The notes beneath the pieces were generated by a model. That model did not search any database. It was not told the origin of the DNA and saw only the letters and a program-made list of their open reading frames with translations. From Escherichia coli (GTDB taxonomy: Bacteria > Pseudomonadota > Gammaproteobacteria > Enterobacterales > Enterobacteriaceae), in NCBI RefSeq assembly GCF_036507355.1, contig NZ_AP027877.1: a stretch of 64,000 bases of DNA; one strand, written 5' to 3'. Positions 14,183 to 62,610 of this stretch are shown here, in pieces. Numbering within the stretch: the stretch's first letter is position 1; each line of letters starts with the position of its first letter. The position numbers were made by a program, and so were the translations under genes.

Positions 14183-14261
14183 CCGGAAAGCGGTTCACAG
14201 ATCTCGCTTCGTACATGGCAGGCCTATTGACGCTGTTGTTTTTTCAACCTAGAGTAAAGGA

Positions 14262-14410
14262 ACAAGGGTAAGGGAGGATTTCTCCCCCCTCTGATGAGTT
14301 GTTAGTAAGTCGGGAAACTTAACAGTAACAACACAACCAGTATGATGACGAGCTTCATCATAACCCTTTCCTTCTATAAGGCCCCTTCCTCGGGAGGGGC
14401 TTTCCCGTTT
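14262..14410 (+). ncRNA. sibE: Sib-family antisense sRNA (antitoxin), copy proximal to hldE
   Basis: Promoter TTGACG(14227-32)-17 bp-TAGAGT(14250-55); terminator hairpin gcccctTcc/ggaggggc + U-tract at 14380-14410; fully antisense to the ibs ORF; ends approximate; D/E naming by synteny only. Confidence 0.7.
14302..14361 (-). CDS. ibsE: Ibs-family type I toxin, 19 aa (MMKLVIILVVLLLLSFPTY)
   Basis: Hand-translated minus-strand ORF, ATG 14361 to TAA 14302-04; hydrophobic 19-mer typical of Ibs; below ORF-track size cut-off. Confidence 0.75.
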   Translation of the reverse strand: MMKLVIILVVLLLLSFPTY

Positions 14411-14637
14411 CAGCCCCTTGCTGTCTCCCCGATTGTTGATGAGCGCCGGACCCCGCGCAACGCTTTCCCTGAAGCAGTTTTGCCTTCCCCGAGCGGTCAC
14501 GCAAAACGCTGCAACGTCCTGAGCATTTGCACCTTTTAGCGGAACGCAGATATAAAAAATCCCCGGCTTTTTGGGCCAGGGATATGTGTTAATGAAACCT
14601 TCTTGACGCTGATTTTTTTTCAACCTAAAGTAAAGGA

Positions 14638-14786
14638 ACAAGGGTGAGGGAGGATTTCTCCCCCCTCTGATTGGCTGTTAATAAGCTGCGAAACTTACGA
14701 GTAACAACACAATCAGTATGATGACGAGCTTCATCATAACCCTTTCCTTCTGTAAGGCCCCTTCCTCGGGAGGGGCTTTCCCGTTT
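14638..14786 (+). ncRNA. sibD: Sib-family antisense sRNA (antitoxin), copy proximal to yqiK
   Basis: Promoter TTGACG(14603-08)-17 bp-TAAAGT(14626-31); same terminator hairpin at 14756-14786; antisense to second ibs ORF. Confidence 0.7.
14678..14737 (-). CDS. ibsD: Ibs-family type I toxin, 19 aa (MMKLVIILIVLLLVSFAAY)
   Basis: Hand-translated minus-strand ORF, ATG 14737 to TAA 14678-80; paralog of the copy at 14302..14361. Confidence 0.75.
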   Translation of the reverse strand: MMKLVIILIVLLLVSFAAY

Positions 14787-16637: not shown

Positions 16638-17298
16638 TATTAAATTTCCTTTTGATTAATAAATTACAATATTTGGGGCCAGGGATTGTTTTCCGCCAAA
16701 TATCGCGTTGCAGAAAGTCGGCAAATAATTAACACTTTGTCTCCTTTAGTGAAAATTTTTCCTTCTTCAGGCTCCAGTAGTAAATAATGTATTTGGCCAA
16801 ATTGATCGGTGAGTTTTCCTTCGCAGGGATTACCTGAAGTGGCTTGATGACCGGTAATTAATGCCATGCTACCAATATATTCTTCTTCTGTAATAGCTGA
16901 ACTATGGTCGCGTGGAATCCAGGGCGCAACTATTTTACCGGTATAATGCACCGCAATAATCGTAAACAGTAAACTGACAGGAACCACGAACAGGTTCGAC
17001 AGTGGTGATTGCCAGACCATGATGCAGGCATGCTGCAACAGGATGCCAATAAGACCAAAAAAACCAGCCAGCAAGCAGAGAACGACGAGAGCTGGCAATC
17101 TTCCGATATTGAGATAATGAAGTGCCTGGCTAATATGACCTGTGGTTATGGAATCATAATGGTCAAGATGTGCATCAAGAGCACCGGAGAGCATGTGACC
17201 GCAGATAAGCGCTAAAATTTCTAAAAGGCCGATCAACAGTACAGGTGATGCTGCCAACTTACTGATTTAGTGTATGATGGTGTTTTTGAGGTGCTCCA

Positions 17299-17574
17299 GT
17301 GGCTTCTGTTTCTATCAGCTGTCCCTCCTGTTCAGCTACTGACGGGGTGGTGCGTAACGGCAAAAGCACCGCCGGACATCAGCGCTATCTCTGCTCTCAC
17401 TGCCGTAAAACATGGCAACTGCAGTTCACTTACACCGCTTCTCAACCCGGTACGCACCAGAAAATCATTGATATGGCCATGAATGGCGTTGGATGCCGGG
17501 CAACAGCCCGCATTATGGGCGTTGGCCTCAACACGATTTTACGTCACTTAAAAAACTCAGGCCGCAGTCGGTAA
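17299..17574 (+). CDS. insA: IS1 InsA (transposition repressor, zinc-finger/HTH)
   Basis: 91 aa, [40 protein letters not shown]... Confidence 0.95.
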
Positions 17575-17996
17575 CCTCGCGCATACAGCCGGGCAGTGAC
17601 GTCATCGTCTGCGCGGAAATGGACGAACAGTGGGGCTATGTCGGGGCTAAATCGCGCCAGCGCTGGCTGTTTTACGCGTATGACAGGCTCCGGAAGACGG
17701 TTGTTGCGCACGTATTCGGTGAACGCACGATGGCGACGCTGGGGCGTCTTATGAGCCTGCTGTCACCCTTTGACGTGGTGATATGGATGACGGATGGCTG
17801 GCCGCTGTATGAATCCCGCCTGAAGGGAAAGCTGCACGTAATCAGCAAGCGATATACGCAGCGAATTGAGCGGCATAACCTGAATCTGAGGCAGCACCTG
17901 GCACGGCTGGGACGGAAGTCGCTGTCGTTCTCAAAATCGGTGGAGCTGCATGACAAAGTCATCGGGCATTATCTGAACATAAAACACTATCAATAA
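17493..17996 (+). CDS. insB: IS1 InsB' frame (made as InsAB' transposase by -1 frameshift)
   Basis: 167-aa ORF in the -1 frame relative to insA; A6C slippery motif at 17550-17556. Confidence 0.9.
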
Positions 17997-18339
17997 GTTG
18001 GAGTCATTACCAACAGTACAAAGGAAATAGCGAAAAGATAAGGGGTATTATAGTCGGCGAATAAAATCATATGTCACTCCAATGTCCATTTAGTGACGCA
18101 ATATTTACTTTGGGATAGTTTCCTTGCTTGCATTTATCTTTGTTAATAATAACATATGTTAGAGAAGTTCTGGAAGAGAAAGTCTTTTAATATGGTTTTT
18201 TTATTTTTCACTAAAAAGTGTGATCGGGGACAATATATTTACGCACGTTATGTTTAAAGGCACTACACTGATTGGGGAATACTGAAATCAGAAAAAGCAT
18301 ATGGCCTTAAAAGGTATGCGATAACCGGAGGATGTGCTT

Positions 18340-18989: not shown

Positions 18990-19247
18990 GAATCCGCTTA
19001 TTCTCAGGGCGGGGCGAAATTCCCCACCGGCGGTAAATCAACTCAGTTGAAAGCCCGCGAGCGCTTTGGGTGCGAACTCAAAGGACAGCAGATCCGGTGT
19101 AATTCCGGGGCCGACGGTTAGAGTCCGGATGGGAGAGAGTAACGATTCTGTCGGGCATGGACCCGCTCACGTTATTTTGGCTATATGCCGCCACTCCTAA
19201 GACTGCCCTGATTCTGGTAACCATAATTTTAGTGAGGTTTTTTTACC
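18990..19247 (+). promoter_or_regulatory. ribB 5' leader with FMN riboswitch (RFN element / sroG)
   Basis: Conserved RFN segments aggGCGGGGCGAAATTCCCCACCGGCGGTAAA ... GCCCGCGAGCGC ... CAGCAGATCCGGTGTAATTCCGGGGCCGACGGT ... AGTCCGGATGGGAGAGAG directly upstream of ribB; ends approximate. Confidence 0.8.
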
Positions 19248-24117: not shown

Positions 24118-25599
24118 TCAGTTACGGAAAGGGTTATGACCGTTACTGGTGGTAGTGCGTGCGGATGTTTGCTGAACGACGGGTGCCGGGCTATCAGGCG
24201 CATAACCATCAGCAATAGCATTCTGTTCCGGCGTTTGCGGGGCAACGTTTTCCGGATTAGTGGAAACCGGTTTGCTCAGCGCATTGTTCAGTGCCAGCAG
24301 ATCCTGCTCGTTCAACGTACCCAGGGCTGACTTAATATTCAGCTGATTAATCAGGTAGTTATAACGCGCATTCGCCAGCTCTTGCTTGGCGTTGTACAGC
24401 GTGGTGGTCGCATCCAACACATCAACAATGGTACGCGTACCGACCGAGTAGCCCGCTTCCATCGCGTCTAATGAGCTTTGAGCGGAAACTACGGCTTGTT
24501 TGTAGGCGTTAATACTACTGATAGAAGCATTAATGTTGTTGAAGGAGGAACGTACGGTTTGCACGACGCTACGATGCGCGCTTTCCAGTTGCTCGCTGGC
24601 ACCAACAAAGTTGTACTGTGCCTGTTTCACCTGCGAGTTAACCATTCCGCCCTGATAAATCGGCAGCGAGAAGCTCAGGCCAACTTTGTTCTGGCCCATA
24701 TTGCTATCGTCATACTGGGTACCAGCGGCACCACGGGTTTTCGAACCGCTATAAGAGGTGTCAGAAATCCCGGTAGAAGCCGTTAAATCCAGCGTCGGTA
24801 AGTGACCATCCTGCGCCTGGCGAATTTGCTCGCGCGCCAGGTCCTGGCTCAAGCGTGCCTGTAACAGCGACAGGTTGCGTTTTTCGGCTTCTTTCAGCAG
24901 CGCGTTAACCGGCTGTGGTTTGTCGGTTTTAAAGTTTTCGACATTCAGCGCCGCCAGTTCCGGATAGTAGTTACCGGTGATCTGGCGCAGCTGCTCTACC
25001 GCGTTATCAAGGTTATTACGTGCGGTCACTTCGTTCGCCAGCACGGTATCGTACTGCGCGCGGGCGTTCTGCACGTCGGTGATCGCTACCAGGCCCACGT
25101 TAAAACGTTGGGTGGTTTGATCTAATTGACGGTAGATCGCTTCTTTTTGTGCCTGTGTATAGGAAAGAACGTCAATAGCATTCAACACGTTGAAATAAGC
25201 GGTCGCGGTGTTGAGGATCAAGGTTTGCTGATCGGTCTGATATGTGACGTCCTGAATCCCTGCTGCTTTTTCCTGCAGCGTTAACGCACGCCATTTCGAC
25301 ATATCAAAAATGGATTGAGTTAACTGCAGGGACGCACTGGTCGCGTTAGAGTTGATGCCGTTCGCGTCGCGGTAGCCGTTGCTATAGGTGTAATCTGCAC
25401 CTAAACCTAGCTGTGGCAGTAATGGACTGCGCGCTTCATTAATTTTTTCAAAGGCAGCATCACGATCGGCGGCAGACTTACGCAATTCCGGGTTACTAAG
25501 GCGTGCTTGCTGATAAACTTGCATCAGGTTCTCGGCCTGGCTCAACGAACTGAACCCAGAAAGGCTCAGGCCGATAAGAATGGGGAGCAATTTCTTCAT
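24118..25599 (-). CDS. tolC: Outer membrane efflux channel TolC
   Basis: ORF 24118..25638; start at ATG 25599 (MKKLLPILIGLSLSGFSSLSQAENLMQVYQQA..., 493 aa). Confidence 0.95.
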   Translation of the reverse strand: MKKLLPILIGLSLSGFSSLSQAENLMQVYQQARLSNPELRKSAADRDAAFEKINEARSPLLPQLGLGADYTYSNGYRDANGINSNATSASLQLTQSIFDMSKWRALTLQEKAAGIQDVTYQTDQQTLILNTATAYFNVLNAIDVLSYTQAQKEAIYRQLDQTTQRFNVGLVAITDVQNARAQYDTVLANEVTARNNLDNAVEQLRQITGNYYPELAALNVENFKTDKPQPVNALLKEAEKRNLSLLQARLSQDLAREQIRQAQDGHLPTLDLTASTGISDTSYSGSKTRGAAGTQYDDSNMGQNKVGLSFSLPIYQGGMVNSQVKQAQYNFVGASEQLESAHRSVVQTVRSSFNNINASISSINAYKQAVVSAQSSLDAMEAGYSVGTRTIVDVLDATTTLYNAKQELANARYNYLINQLNIKSALGTLNEQDLLALNNALSKPVSTNPENVAPQTPEQNAIADGYAPDSPAPVVQQTSARTTTSNGHNPFRN

Positions 25600-25803
25600 T
25601 TGCATTCCTTGTGGTGAAGCAGTATTTAGCGCGATCAAACTGTAAAATTATTGCGGATTCTAGCAGAAGCCGCTACCGCAAAAGGTTGGCGTTACGTGCC
25701 ATAGGGCGTTAATGTGCCTCAATTTAACACATGACTGCTCAAACGGCAGTCAAACGTCGCTGAAATTCACATTTAATTCACTATTAGTGCCAGGACATTA
25801 ACA

Positions 25804-26433
25804 ATGCTTAAGCCAGACAACCTGCCCGTTACATTTGGCAAAAACGATGTAGAAATTATTGCACGAGAAACACTTTATCGCGGCTTTTTTTCATTAGATC
25901 TTTATAGATTTCGTCATCGTCTATTCAACGGGCAAATGAGTCATGAGGTACGGCGGGAAATTTTTGAGCGCGGTCACGCCGCAGTCTTGCTACCCTTTGA
26001 CCCAGTGCGTGATGAAGTTGTGCTGATTGAGCAGATTCGAATTGCCGCGTACGACACTAGCGAAACCCCCTGGCTACTGGAGATGGTTGCCGGGATGATT
26101 GAAGAGGGTGAAAGTGTGGAAGATGTTGCCCGTCGCGAAGCGATTGAAGAGGCGGGGCTGATAGTCAAACGGACCAAACCGGTGTTAAGTTTCTTGGCAA
26201 GCCCGGGGGGCACCAGTGAGCGTTCGTCAATTATGGTGGGCGAAGTGGACGCCACGACCGCAAGCGGTATTCACGGTCTGGCTGATGAAAACGAAGATAT
26301 TCGCGTTCATGTGGTAAGCCGGGAACAGGCATACCAGTGGGTAGAAGAGGGGAAAATCGACAACGCAGCGTCGGTCATCGCTTTGCAATGGCTGCAGCTG
26401 CATCATCAAGCGTTAAAAAATGAGTGGGCATAA
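25804..26433 (+). CDS. nudF: ADP-ribose pyrophosphatase (Nudix)
   Basis: 209 aa with Nudix box ([22 protein letters not shown]). Confidence 0.92.
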
Positions 26434-26856
26434 ATGAAGCGTTACACACCTGACTTTCCTGAAATGATGCGCCTGTGCGAGATGAACTTTTCACAATTGC
26501 GCCGTTTGTTACCGCGCAATGACGCACCCGGCGAAACTGTAAGCTATCAGGTGGCAAACGCACAATATCGGCTGACGATTGTGGAATCGACCCGATACAC
26601 TACCCTGGTGACAATAGAACAGACTGCGCCCGCGATCAGTTACTGGAGCCTTCCGTCAATGACGGTGCGTCTGTATCATGACGCGATGGTGGCTGAAGTG
26701 TGTTCAAGCCAGCAGATTTTTCGCTTCAAAGCGCGGTATGATTATCCTAATAAAAAGTTGCATCAACGCGACGAAAAGCATCAAATTAACCAGTTTTTAG
26801 CGGACTGGTTGCGATACTGTTTAGCACATGGAGCGATGGCGATTCCGGTTTACTAG
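26434..26856 (+). CDS. yqiB: DUF1249 family protein
   Basis: 140-aa ORF starting immediately after the nudF stop. Confidence 0.85.
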
Positions 26857-26880
26857 CGTCGTGAAACCTAAGGACACCAT

Positions 26881-27708
26881 TTGGAAAGCCTGTTAACCCT
26901 TCCTCTGGCTGGTGAGGCCAGAGTCAGGATTTTACAAATTACCGATACTCACCTGTTTGCACAAAAGCACGAAGCCCTGTTAGGGGTAAACACCTGGGAA
27001 AGCTACCAGGCGGTGCTGGAGGCGATTCGTCCACACCAGCACGAATTCGACCTGATTGTCGCGACAGGTGATTTAGCGCAGGATCAATCCTCTGCGGCCT
27101 ATCAGCATTTCGCTGAAGGCATCGCAAGTTTTCGTGCGCCCTGCGTCTGGCTGCCGGGCAACCACGATTTCCAGCCCGCGATGTACAGCGCGTTACAGGA
27201 TGCGGGTATCTCCCCGGCGAAGCGGGTATTTATTGGTGAGCAATGGCAAATCCTATTGCTGGATAGCCAGGTGTTTGGCGTGCCGCACGGTGAGCTAAGC
27301 GAGTTTCAGCTTGAGTGGCTGGAACGTAAACTGGCTGATGCGCCAGAGCGCCATACGTTGCTGCTGCTGCATCATCATCCGCTACCTGCGGGTTGTAGTT
27401 GGCTTGATCAACACAGCCTGCGTAACGCGGGCGAACTGGATACCGTGCTGGCGAAGTTTCCGCACGTCAAATACTTGCTGTGCGGTCATATTCATCAGGA
27501 GCTGGATCTCGACTGGAACGGTCGCCGCCTGCTGGCAACGCCGTCGACCTGTGTGCAGTTTAAGCCGCACTGTTCCAACTTTACGCTGGATACTATCGCG
27601 CCCGGCTGGCGTACTCTCGAGTTACATGCTGATGGCACGCTGACCACCGAGGTGCATCGCCTGGCGGACACACGTTTCCAACCTGATACCGCTTCAGAAG
27701 GCTACTGA
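26881..27708 (+). CDS. cpdA: 3',5'-cyclic AMP phosphodiesterase (calcineurin-like metallophosphoesterase)
   Basis: 275 aa; motifs TGDLAQD, GNHD, CGHIH. Confidence 0.92.
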
Positions 27709-28289
27709 TGTCTACGCTTCTTTATTTACACGGTTTCAACAGCTCGCCGCGCTCTGCAAAAGCGAGCTTGTTAAAAAACTGGCTGGCGGAACATCACCCT
27801 GACGTTGAGATGATCATTCCGCAGTTGCCGCCGTATCCTTCCGACGCGGCAGAGCTGCTGGAATCCATTGTCCTGGAACATGGCGGCGATTCGCTGGGTA
27901 TTGTCGGTTCGTCACTGGGGGGATATTACGCCACCTGGTTGTCACAATGTTTTATGCTGCCCGCAGTGGTGGTAAACCCGGCTGTGCGCCCGTTTGAACT
28001 GCTGACGGACTATCTCGGTCAGAACGAGAACCCCTACACCGGGCAGCAATATGTGCTAGAGTCACGCCATATTTACGATCTTAAAGTCATGCAGATTGAC
28101 CCGCTGGAAGCGCCGGATTTGATCTGGCTGCTGCAACAGACGGGAGATGAAGTGCTGGATTACCGCCAGGCGGTGGCGTACTACGCTTCCTGCCGCCAGA
28201 CTGTCATAGAAGGCGGCAACCACGCATTCACGGGCTTCGAAGATTATTTCAACCCGATCGTCGATTTTCTTGGTCTGCACCATCTCTGA
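27708..28289 (+). CDS. yqiA: Esterase YqiA (alpha/beta hydrolase)
   Basis: 193 aa, GSSLGG nucleophile elbow; ATG overlaps cpdA stop (TGATG). Confidence 0.9.
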
Positions 28290-28314
28290 CGATCAACTCG
28301 AATTGCTAACTTAA

Positions 28315-30210
<1,896 letters not shown>

Positions 30211-31184: not shown

Positions 31185-31293
31185 TTTTTAACCTCAAGGT
31201 GAGACGTTTGCCGACTATAGTACGTCACAGAGCGGTACGGTGAAATTAGCAAAATGTGCAAAGTCTTTTGCGAATTTAGCAAAAGTCTTACCC

Positions 31294-45582: not shown

Positions 45583-45686
45583 ACGTTCCTCCTTTATATG
45601 AACTCACCGGAGCAGGCTCCGGTGAGGTGTTGTGAACTTAAGTCTGGACGAAATGCCCGAAAACGAAAGTTTGAGGCGTAAAAAGC

Positions 45687-51396: not shown

Positions 51397-51615
51397 GCCT
51401 GATGCGCTACGCTCATCAGGCCTACAAAATCTATTGCAACATGTTGAATCTTCGTGCGTTTGTAGGCCGGATAAGGCGTTCACGCCGCATCCGGCATTAG
51501 GTGCTCAATGCCTGATGCGCTACGCTTATCAGGCCTACAAAATCTATTGCAACATGTTGAATCTTCATGCGTTTGTAGGCGGATAAGGCGTTTTCGCCAC
51601 ATCAGGTAAGAGTGA
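51397..51615. repeat. BIME-type REP cluster: two tandem ~113-bp units
   Basis: gcctgatgcgctacgctYatcaggcctacaaaatctattgcaacatgttgaatcttcRtgcgtttgtaggc... repeated at 51397 and 51510. Confidence 0.85.
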
Positions 51616-62499: not shown

Positions 62500-62610
62500 C
62501 TTTCGTAGGTCTGATAAGACGCGGCAGCGTCGCATCAGGCATTGTGCTCGATTGCCGGATGCGGCGTGAACGCCTTATCCGGCCTGGATGGCTTGCTGCG
62601 ACGAACGCTA
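62500..62610. repeat. REP element(s) between hybG and yghU
   Basis: gtaggtctgataagacgcggcagcgtcgcatcaggc and gccggatgcggcgtgaacgccttatccggcc palindromic units. Confidence 0.75.

Follow-up and report, generated by a model that had tools for sequence, protein, structure and literature searches.

The nudF, yqiB, cpdA, yqiA and parE genes in the window (the whole stretch of 64,000 nucleotides of Escherichia coli DNA that was analysed) probably form a core-genome operon with ordinary tight boundaries, in which translation would be coupled in two gene pairs, nudF-yqiB and cpdA-yqiA. The five genes follow one another in this order on one strand and diverge from tolC, as is expected of an operon. The evidence on gene identities and transcription, on the two junctions and their conservation, and on YqiB, the DUF1249 protein of the unit, is given below along with the alternative readings of this arrangement.

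Genes and boundaries of the unit

The first gene, nudF (25,804–26,433, + strand, ATG start and TAA stop), encodes an ADP-ribose diphosphatase of 209 aa, which has a Pfam NUDIX domain and matches the NCBIfam equivalog NF008003 with 441 bits (cutoff 248); PGAP agrees with this call. It is followed on the same strand by yqiB (26,434–26,856), coding for a DUF1249 protein of 140 aa (PF06853, 8e-42; NF008267, 285 bits), by cpdA (26,881–27,708, TTG start and TGA stop), coding for a 3',5'-cAMP phosphodiesterase of 275 aa with the same start in PGAP, and by yqiA (27,708–28,289), coding for the esterase YqiA of 193 aa, a UPF0227 alpha/beta hydrolase (PF05728, 8e-78; NF008291, 379 bits). CpdA matched NF008359 with 518 bits (cutoff 225) over residues 1–275 of 275 and, as judged from this equivalog match and its metallophosphoesterase domain (Pfam Metallophos, PF00149, 81 bits), is a class III cyclic-nucleotide phosphodiesterase. 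Because NudF, YqiB, CpdA and YqiA are all full-length NCBIfam equivalog matches well over the cutoffs, the starts chosen for the four genes are supported. The Pfam and NCBIfam matches confirmed the four gene identities proposed in a preliminary description of this DNA, and the TAAATG and TGATG junctions described there were found to be correct on both the sequence and the RefSeq boundaries. The last gene of the unit, annotated as parE (28,318–30,210, + strand), encodes topoisomerase IV subunit B. The preliminary description was silent on parE as the fifth gene and on the 24-nt spacer and TTG start of cpdA.

The DNA is 99.8% identical to that of sequenced E. coli strains, and in one strain of 99.8% identity PGAP/RefSeq sets exactly the same nudF, yqiB, cpdA and yqiA boundaries. 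The operon block was found in 5,425 of 5,426 complete E. coli genomes. A single polycistronic mRNA would begin in the 204-bp tolC-nudF intergenic region (25,600–25,803), the presumed site of divergent promoters, with tolC lying at 24,118–25,599 on the − strand in the RefSeq annotation of a collinear strain. Consensus scans of this spacer gave no consensus-grade promoter upstream of nudF, the best sigma-70-like match being TTGGCG-16-GTTAAT at 25,686–25,713 (8 of 12 positions). A consensus scan from 25,804 to 28,318, which is a pattern-based and weak test, gave no terminator-like site on the + strand. There was no Rfam match within the operon, and the repeats in 25,500–28,400 were only short chance or codon-level matches. 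These genes have no entry in the supplements to two E. coli operon maps, Conway 2014 and SMRT-Cappable-seq. The operon is written as “(nudF--yqiA-parE)” by Shimada et al (2014; PMC3946193).

The two tight junctions and possible translational coupling

At the nudF/yqiB junction TAAATG (26,431–26,436, + strand), the nudF stop (26,431–26,433) abuts the yqiB ATG (26,434–26,436) with a gap of 0, and at the cpdA/yqiA junction TGATG (27,706–27,710, + strand), the cpdA TGA (27,706–27,708) and the yqiA ATG (27,708–27,710) overlap by 1 nt, the A of TGA being the first base of ATG. The geometry of coupled pairs, in which a stop overlaps the next start or lies within a few nucleotides of it, is thus present at both junctions. 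In addition, both downstream genes are preceded by Shine-Dalgarno (SD)-like elements within the upstream coding sequence on the + strand. GAGTGGG in the 3' end of nudF (26,422–26,428) lies 6–12 nt upstream of the yqiB ATG, with a duplex energy of −5.4 kcal/mol with the 3' end of 16S rRNA, and GAAGG in the 3' end of cpdA (27,697–27,701) lies 7–11 nt upstream of the yqiA ATG, with −3.4 kcal/mol. The yqiB-cpdA spacer of 24 nt (26,857–26,880, + strand) contains the cpdA SD TAAGGA (26,869–26,874; −5.7 kcal/mol), and the yqiA-parE spacer of 28 nt is A/U-rich without an SD-like sequence (+0.1 kcal/mol).

This arrangement makes pairwise coupling from nudF to yqiB and from cpdA to yqiA plausible. After the nudF UAA, ribosomes would restart directly on the adjoining yqiB AUG, helped by GAGUGGG within nudF, and after the cpdA UGA they would restart on the overlapping yqiA AUG, helped by GAAGG within cpdA. 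The cpdA gene would be initiated on its own, from its UUG start with its own strong SD and a 24-nt spacer, and so would parE, from a 28-nt A/U-rich leader without SD. Coupling in the two pairs would probably tune the output of each pair and not be obligatory. The co-translation of all four genes claimed earlier held as tight links in two pairs, but a chain through all four was not found, cpdA lying 24 nt from yqiB and starting with TTG behind an SD of its own, and the corresponding spacer measuring 24–276 nt in the listed relatives. Classical coupled overlapping pairs (ATGA/TGATG; hyb, ttdAB and qseBC in the window) have the same geometry, with the SD inside the upstream coding sequence. At nudF/yqiB and cpdA/yqiA, where coupling is predicted from the sequence geometry, no occluding RNA structure is present, in which they differ from the classical pairs.

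The conservation of the junctions was monitored in 81 loci, all from Enterobacterales, from a search with a 14-sequence alignment that keeps the best 80 matches, a set that suits junction statistics and not deep synteny. Two of these loci (L012 and L026) are frameshifted assemblies, and 79 are intact. The same gene order was found in 81 of the 81 listed loci and also in 65 metagenomic gammaproteobacterial loci, and tolC was upstream and divergent in 78 of the 81 listed loci and in many metagenomic ones. Among the 79 intact listed loci, the nudF-yqiB gap was always between −4 and +4 nt (−4 in 49, −1 in 9, 0 in 2–3, +2 in 15 and +4 in 3), the junction in relatives taking the form ATGA (49 loci), TAATG/TGATG (9) or a spacer of +2 or +4 nt. 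The cpdA-yqiA gap was always between −4 and +8 nt in the same 79 loci and was −1 in 56–57 of the 81 listed. Furthermore, GAGTGG upstream of yqiB is kept at the same spot across the listed Enterobacterales, and GAAGG, GAGGG or GACGG upstream of yqiA is kept in position. The tight gaps hold while the other two spacers drift (24–276 nt for yqiB-cpdA and 26–116 nt for yqiA-parE in the listed loci), which points to selection acting on these two junctions in particular; they have been maintained by evolution in Enterobacterales. Outside this order, where start calls are approximate, both junctions are looser, with a gap not exceeding 4 nt for nudF-yqiB in 25 of 44 loci and for cpdA-yqiA in 8 of 32.

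A possible reading, which we consider rather unlikely, is that the tight junctions merely follow from selection that keeps intergenic distances in operons short, and that ribosomes load independently at the SD-like sites of yqiB and yqiA. Independent initiation would be possible because both starts are unstructured and each has an SD-like element. All start regions were less structured than shuffled controls (z of +0.7 to +2.4; +2.41 for yqiB and +0.92 for yqiA), so that an upstream ribosome would need to unwind nothing, and occluding RNA hairpins sought at the yqiB and yqiA starts were not found. The SD-like motifs and unstructured starts are neutral to negative for a dependence of downstream translation on the upstream gene. 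Such gaps of at most 0 nt are also frequent nearby: the collinear annotated region in strain EC21Z-147 has 37 pairs of adjacent genes on the same strand, 9 of them with a gap of this kind (ttdBA, qseCB, five hyb pairs, nudF/yqiB and cpdA/yqiA), and the abutting nudF/yqiB and cpdA/yqiA boundaries are ordinary operon architecture. The junction type varies freely in relatives (ATGA, TAATG, TAAATG, +2 and +4), and gaps exceed 30 nt in many non-enterobacterial relatives. However, a uniform pressure for short spacers would not pick the same two boundaries each time, and these two are tight in 79 of 79 intact listed loci of Enterobacterales, where the lengths of the other two spacers differ more than tenfold. 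We thus favour pairwise coupling at the two junctions over independent loading.

YqiB and its genomic neighbours

YqiB belongs to DUF1249 (Pfam PF06853; NCBIfam PRK11039; COG3151); the protein is conserved in Gammaproteobacteria and forms about 930 clusters at 50% identity. YqiB scored 142 bits against the Pfam profile (cutoff 25) and 285 bits against the NCBIfam profile (cutoff 195), and the two DUF1249 motifs, one of 18 letters and the other DEK.Q.N, are both present in it. Six of its residues are invariant (N18, D83, E88, N106, E114 and K115) and four near-invariant (H82, Y81, Q117 and N119). No fused domain was found in the longer DUF1249 proteins, and their length extensions are therefore probably over-called starts. 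Experimental evolution yielded the substitution Q117K, and a mutant rebuilt with it was fitter when amino acids were supplied (PMC5096674). The AF2 model of YqiB, which is confident (pLDDT 88.9, pTM 0.82), gave no structural neighbour and no similar nucleotide-binding fold when searched against the PDB, its top structural matches being the p32/gC1qBP/MAM33 fold and Chlamydia CT021, and PDB sequence and profile searches with YqiB returned only noise. The absence of PDB neighbours agrees with the description of the Pseudomonas aeruginosa protein PA4970 as an apparently novel fold (PMC9866376). The legacy label “predicted dehydrogenase” for YqiB was not supported by any of the profile or fold results. 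A literature search gave nothing on DUF1249 and only passing mention of E. coli yqiB, and no solved structure matches YqiB, in line with the preliminary description, which assigned the protein no role.

NudF converts ADP-ribose to AMP and ribose-5-P, and CpdA, whose Km for cAMP is reportedly high, converts cAMP to AMP. The junctions might reflect a shared task, with YqiB serving adenine-nucleotide turnover as an enzyme or accessory protein alongside NudF and/or CpdA; it could, for instance, bind AMP or a similar ligand, or regulate one of the two hydrolases. Taken together, this reading appears improbable. It is favoured by the metagenomic canonical loci, where yqiB has nudF next to it upstream in 43 of 51 cases and cpdA next to it downstream in 44 of 50, and by the nudF-yqiB junction, which across Gammaproteobacteria is tight more often than the others (the 25 of 44 loci given above). 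In a distant DUF1249 branch, the gene is directly downstream of ppsR in 17 of 39 loci, and the product of ppsR, which regulates the AMP-forming PEP synthase and is ADP/Pi-dependent, brings in another adenine-nucleotide context. The polar nature of the invariant YqiB residues, which would suit a site for ligand binding or catalysis, and the fitness advantage of Q117K with amino acids (PMC5096674) point in the same direction.

Several observations argue against such a module. The same conserved block includes tolC and parE, which are unlinked to nucleotide hydrolysis, and synteny is therefore a weak guide to function here. Nor is the unit purely a nucleotide-turnover cluster, the context assigned to it earlier: it continues through parE, an essential gene of topoisomerase IV, and is conserved beside tolC. 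The cpdA gene is absent from three loci (L102, L107 and L120) and nudF from at least five that retain yqiB, and in 19 of the 39 distant loci DUF1249 lies in different surroundings, for example iscR, pgm, ispG and mraZ. The nudF and cpdA genes are thus usual but dispensable neighbours of yqiB. The first 11 distant loci had suggested cpdA as the one invariant partner of DUF1249, which was refuted by the larger metagenomic sample. The YqiB model also resembles no nucleotide-binding fold. An AF2 model of a YqiB-(GGGGS)6-CpdA fusion, made from a shallow alignment of 24 paired sequences and read without PAE, gave no sign of a complex; its pTM of 0.62 roughly equals the fraction of the chain that CpdA makes up, and the YqiB pLDDT was lower in it than in the model of YqiB alone.

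It is very doubtful, in our estimate, that YqiB has a fold not seen before and acts on an adenine nucleotide by binding or converting it, AMP being the common product of its NudF, CpdA and PpsR/PpsA neighbours, and that the nudF-yqiB re-initiation junction sets the level of YqiB relative to NudF. If that were true, the cluster would be a real AMP-centred module and not a historical string of genes. The context survey narrows the useful experiments on YqiB, with nudF and cpdA as dispensable neighbours and a second context beside ppsR.

Possible internal promoters and related operons

Independent expression of each gene from its own promoter, with an adjacency that is historical only, is highly improbable: genomic SELEX did place one RpoD-holoenzyme site inside the operon, where cpdA meets yqiA (PMC3946193), and expression is therefore probably not strictly coupled, but with gaps of 0 and −1 nt a promoter could not fit outside coding sequence, our scans gave no sigma-70-like site on the + strand inside the operon, the SELEX study itself handles the genes as one operon, and the Pseudomonas orthologues respond together (PMC9866376). 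Sigma-32 and sigma-70 motif scans of the 3' half of cpdA gave nothing convincing.

In P. aeruginosa, PA4971 (aspP/nudF), PA4970 (DUF1249) and PA4969 (cpdA) are in the same order as the three genes of E. coli, and RpoH co-induces them by 11.9-, 7.0- and 8.6-fold, respectively (PMC9866376). This heat-shock control of the P. aeruginosa cluster contrasts with the E. coli tolC-nudF intergenic region, where no such sequence signal and no convincing sigma-32 match was found. The V. vulnificus cpdA gene is reportedly regulated by cAMP-CRP and is said to belong to an operon, mutT(nudF)-yqiB-cpdA-yqiA, that has a CRP site upstream of it. Vibrio cpdA lies in the same place on the chromosome, as in V. cholerae VC2433 (PMC3380833).

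The architecture described here is already known, being that of a long-annotated E. coli operon, and the finding restates a core layout annotated in every genome and changes little. Its residual value is in YqiB, a protein with no solved or similar structure, with invariant polar residues and with a fitness-affecting substitution at a near-invariant one. In comparison with the nudF-yqiB-cpdA-yqiA-parE unit of E. coli K-12, the genes, their order, strand and boundaries are all identical, and nothing of substance differs. Elsewhere in the window, ygiZ is absent from this strain and IS1 is present within yqiJ.

Gene content of the operon and its surroundings

The cluster described preliminarily at 26430–27710, bounded by the stop codon of nudF and the start codon of yqiA, is the annotated nudF-yqiB-cpdA-yqiA-parE operon of E. 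coli and is already known. On the plus strand, nudF (25804–26433, ATG start and TAA stop), yqiB (26434–26856), cpdA (26881–27708, TTG start and TGA stop) and yqiA (27708–28289) are followed by parE (28318–30210), and tolC (24118–25599, minus strand) is the divergent neighbour. The listed ORFs, the sequence itself and the RefSeq/PGAP annotation of a strain with 99.8% identity all give this gene set; a 506-aa version of TolC from a TTG at 25638 in the mechanical ORF list was an ORF-calling artefact, the RefSeq start being at 25599. The products of the first four genes contain NUDIX, DUF1249, Metallophos and UPF0227 Pfam domains, respectively, and matched, at full length and far over the curated cutoffs, the NCBIfam equivalogs ADP-ribose diphosphatase, “DUF1249 family protein,” 3′,5′-cAMP phosphodiesterase and esterase YqiA. 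Of 5426 complete E. coli genomes, all but one (5425) contain the region 25600–28400 at ≥95% identity, nearly always in single copy and chromosomal. The 25-nt direct repeats (GCTGC.GCTGCATCATCA...) at 26391–26415 (nudF 3′ end), 26664–26688 (yqiB) and 27360–27384 (cpdA) look like codon-level chance similarity of Leu/His-rich codon runs (LQLHH, RLYHD and LLLHHH).

The sequenced collinear strain EC21Z-147 equals the window except for a few indels, every one outside the operon. A 768-bp IS1 at 17243–18011 (plus-strand ORFs 17299–17574 and 17493–17996; InsA and IS1 DDE transposase by Pfam) lies within the 5′ end of yqiJ (minus strand), leaving a truncated remnant as a 197-aa ORF at 16664–17257, and is absent from EC21Z-147. 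At the mdaB-qseC gap (~31289–31293), the window lacks ~630 bp with ygiZ that this strain contains (locus L086, 31289–31919). Rfam matches at 14227–14376, 14603–14752, 18996–19144, 45621–45684 (minus), 51465–51535 and 62508–62584 (minus) represent two SIB antitoxin RNAs, the ribB FMN riboswitch, the ES173 sRNA and two naRNA4/REP-type elements; compared with EC21Z-147, the 51465–51535 element falls within a 233-bp insertion.

Tight junctions and their conservation

Both boundaries on which co-translation had been proposed are exactly as described, with nudF abutting yqiB (GCA TAA ATG AAG, gap 0) and cpdA overlapping yqiA by 1 nt (TAC TGATG TCT). These are standard abutting and overlapping stop-start arrangements of bacterial operons, and as a pattern they are not more than chance; gaps of ≤0 occurred in 9 of 37 same-strand neighbour pairs of the annotated collinear region of EC21Z-147 (ttdBA, qseCB, five hyb pairs, nudF/yqiB and cpdA/yqiA). 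As a conserved character, the tight junctions do exceed chance. The order nudF-yqiB-cpdA-yqiA-parE, all in one direction, was seen in 81/81 Enterobacterales loci among the best matches listed, with divergent tolC upstream in 78/81. After leaving out two frameshifted assemblies (L012 and L026), the nudF-yqiB junction in the remaining 79 listed loci was −4 (ATGA) in 49, −1 in 9, 0 in 2–3, +2 in 15 and +4 in 3, and the cpdA-yqiA junction was −1 in 56–57, −4 in 5 and 0 to +8 in the remainder. Spacers in the same 79 loci spanned 24–276 nt for yqiB-cpdA and 26–116 nt for yqiA-parE; thus, the nudF-yqiB and cpdA-yqiA boundaries are kept tight while the other two drift. Gap 0 at nudF-yqiB is the Escherichia state, the TAAATG of E. 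coli being derived from the commoner ATGA overlap. Among metagenomic loci, junctions of ≤4 nt, which rest on approximate start calls, were found in 25/44 (nudF-yqiB), 15/47 (yqiB-cpdA), 8/32 (cpdA-yqiA) and 0/29 (yqiA-parE), and the junctions are looser outside Enterobacterales. The specific conservation of the two tight junctions in Enterobacterales is one modest addition of the present analysis to the known operon, beside the limits on coupling and the fold and contexts of DUF1249 given below.

Transcription and translation initiation

The five genes would form one operon, with termination-reinitiation at two pairs, nudF-yqiB and cpdA-yqiA. The junction geometry and the Shine-Dalgarno (SD)-like motifs within the upstream coding sequences would fit re-initiation at both; GAGUGGG at 26422–26428 in the nudF 3′ end (duplex −5.4 kcal/mol) and GAAGG at 27697–27701 in the cpdA 3′ end (−3.4 kcal/mol) are kept in relatives. 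The co-translation proposed through all four genes was not borne out, because cpdA lies 24 nt past yqiB, has its own TAAGGA SD (duplex −5.7 kcal/mol) and a weak UUG start, and parE has no SD (+0.1 kcal/mol, the remaining four starts giving −3.4 to −5.7). Essential parE continues the same-strand string 28 nt past yqiA with an A/U-rich, unstructured leader (28290–28320), and its initiation mode is not obvious from the sequence. The cpdA start is TTG in E. coli (26881) and in the distant relatives L082 (4909) and L084 (5541), and GTG in another, L094 (5759); these non-ATG starts suggest a deliberately low translation of cAMP phosphodiesterase.

All five initiation regions were less well folded than shuffled controls (z of +1.62 for nudF, +2.41 for yqiB, +1.23 for cpdA, +0.92 for yqiA and +0.73 for parE), so no hairpin requires an upstream ribosome to open it. 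Coupling can only be pairwise and is not structurally enforced. Compaction only, without functional coupling, is a rather unlikely reading of the conserved junctions. That each gene is expressed independently is very improbable. A scan found no terminator-like site on the plus strand from nudF to parE, in keeping with one operon. By sequence, no consensus-grade promoter was found upstream of nudF or at the cpdA/yqiA boundary. Shimada et al (2014) list the operon as “(nudF--yqiA-parE)” (PMC3946193), and an internal RpoD-holoenzyme site from the same SELEX study lies at the cpdA/yqiA boundary (PMC3946193), from which yqiA-parE may be fed independently. A further operon sign is that RpoH jointly induced the Pseudomonas aeruginosa orthologues PA4971, PA4970 and PA4969, by 11.9-, 7.0- and 8.6-fold (PMC9866376). 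Weighing the operon signs, junction geometry and SD motifs against the unstructured starts and the SELEX site, the likely reading is the known operon, in which two of the junctions probably re-initiate.

YqiB and the genomic contexts of DUF1249

The lack of a known function for YqiB is an acknowledged gap and no discovery; a literature search found DUF1249 unmentioned and E. coli yqiB mentioned in passing only. The family is of moderate size, comprising 934 clusters at 50% identity (E ≤ 1e-3). An 83-sequence alignment contained invariant N18, D83, E88, N106, E114 and K115, near-invariant Y19, R79, Y81, H82, Y102, Y104, P105, Q117 and N119, and the motif DEK.Q.N with one further motif of 18 letters (letters not shown). 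The mutation Q117K (codon 117, 26782–26784) arose in an E. coli evolution experiment, and the rebuilt mutant gained fitness with amino acids supplied (PMC5096674). The AlphaFold2 model of the 140-aa protein was confident (pLDDT 88.9, pTM 0.82), with a helix at 8–25, five strands within 35–92, a less confident loop at 93–113 and a helix at 114–132. PDB sequence and profile searches found no matching chain for YqiB, and the predicted fold of DUF1249 is an orphan.

Metagenome contigs scanned by DNA pattern for the YHDA..AEV motif yielded 120 loci, 104 of them with a DUF1249 gene. The canonical block was present in 65 loci (33–95% identity to YqiB); where flanks sufficed, the upstream neighbour was nudF in 43/51, divergent tolC in 5 and another gene in 3, and the downstream neighbour was cpdA in 44/50, yqiA in 3 (L102, L107 and L120), parE in 1 and none recognised in 2. 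In a first set of 11 loci, cpdA had seemed to be the only fixed neighbour of DUF1249, which this larger sample contradicted. In clusters lacking cpdA, yqiB is followed by yqiA and parE (L102, L107, L120 and L192) or by parE alone (L173); therefore, DUF1249 is kept without the phosphodiesterase.

NudF, CpdA and the PpsR/PpsA system each convert adenine nucleotides to AMP, and this common product motivates a speculative reading of YqiB as an adenine-nucleotide-linked accessory protein. We consider it improbable, as tolC and parE also belong to the conserved block and the nudF or cpdA neighbour can each be lost. Furthermore, an AlphaFold2 co-fold of YqiB and CpdA as fused chains with 24 paired sequences gave a pTM of 0.62, with the YqiB part less confident than alone, and so gave no indication of a complex.

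The other 39 loci (26–39% identity) had none of the five neighbours, and the Pfam DUF1249 match was still clear (~1e-22). In 17 of them (L096, L098, L100, L110, L112, L113, L119, L121, L147, L148, L154, L160, L167, L177, L187, L189 and L211; 26–35% identity), ppsR (PF03618 kinase/pyrophosphorylase), divergent from ppsA, lies directly upstream of DUF1249, followed in most by an uncharacterised ~340-aa protein with no Pfam or NCBIfam match; their close relatives were named Steroidobacteraceae or Gammaproteobacteria MAGs. DUF1249 thus appears in two recurrent genomic contexts, the canonical block and ppsR, which together with the orphan fold point to ligand-binding work. Nineteen of the 39 loci were without the ppsA, ppsR and 340-aa genes, and some of these adjoin iscR and pgm, or ispG and mraZ.
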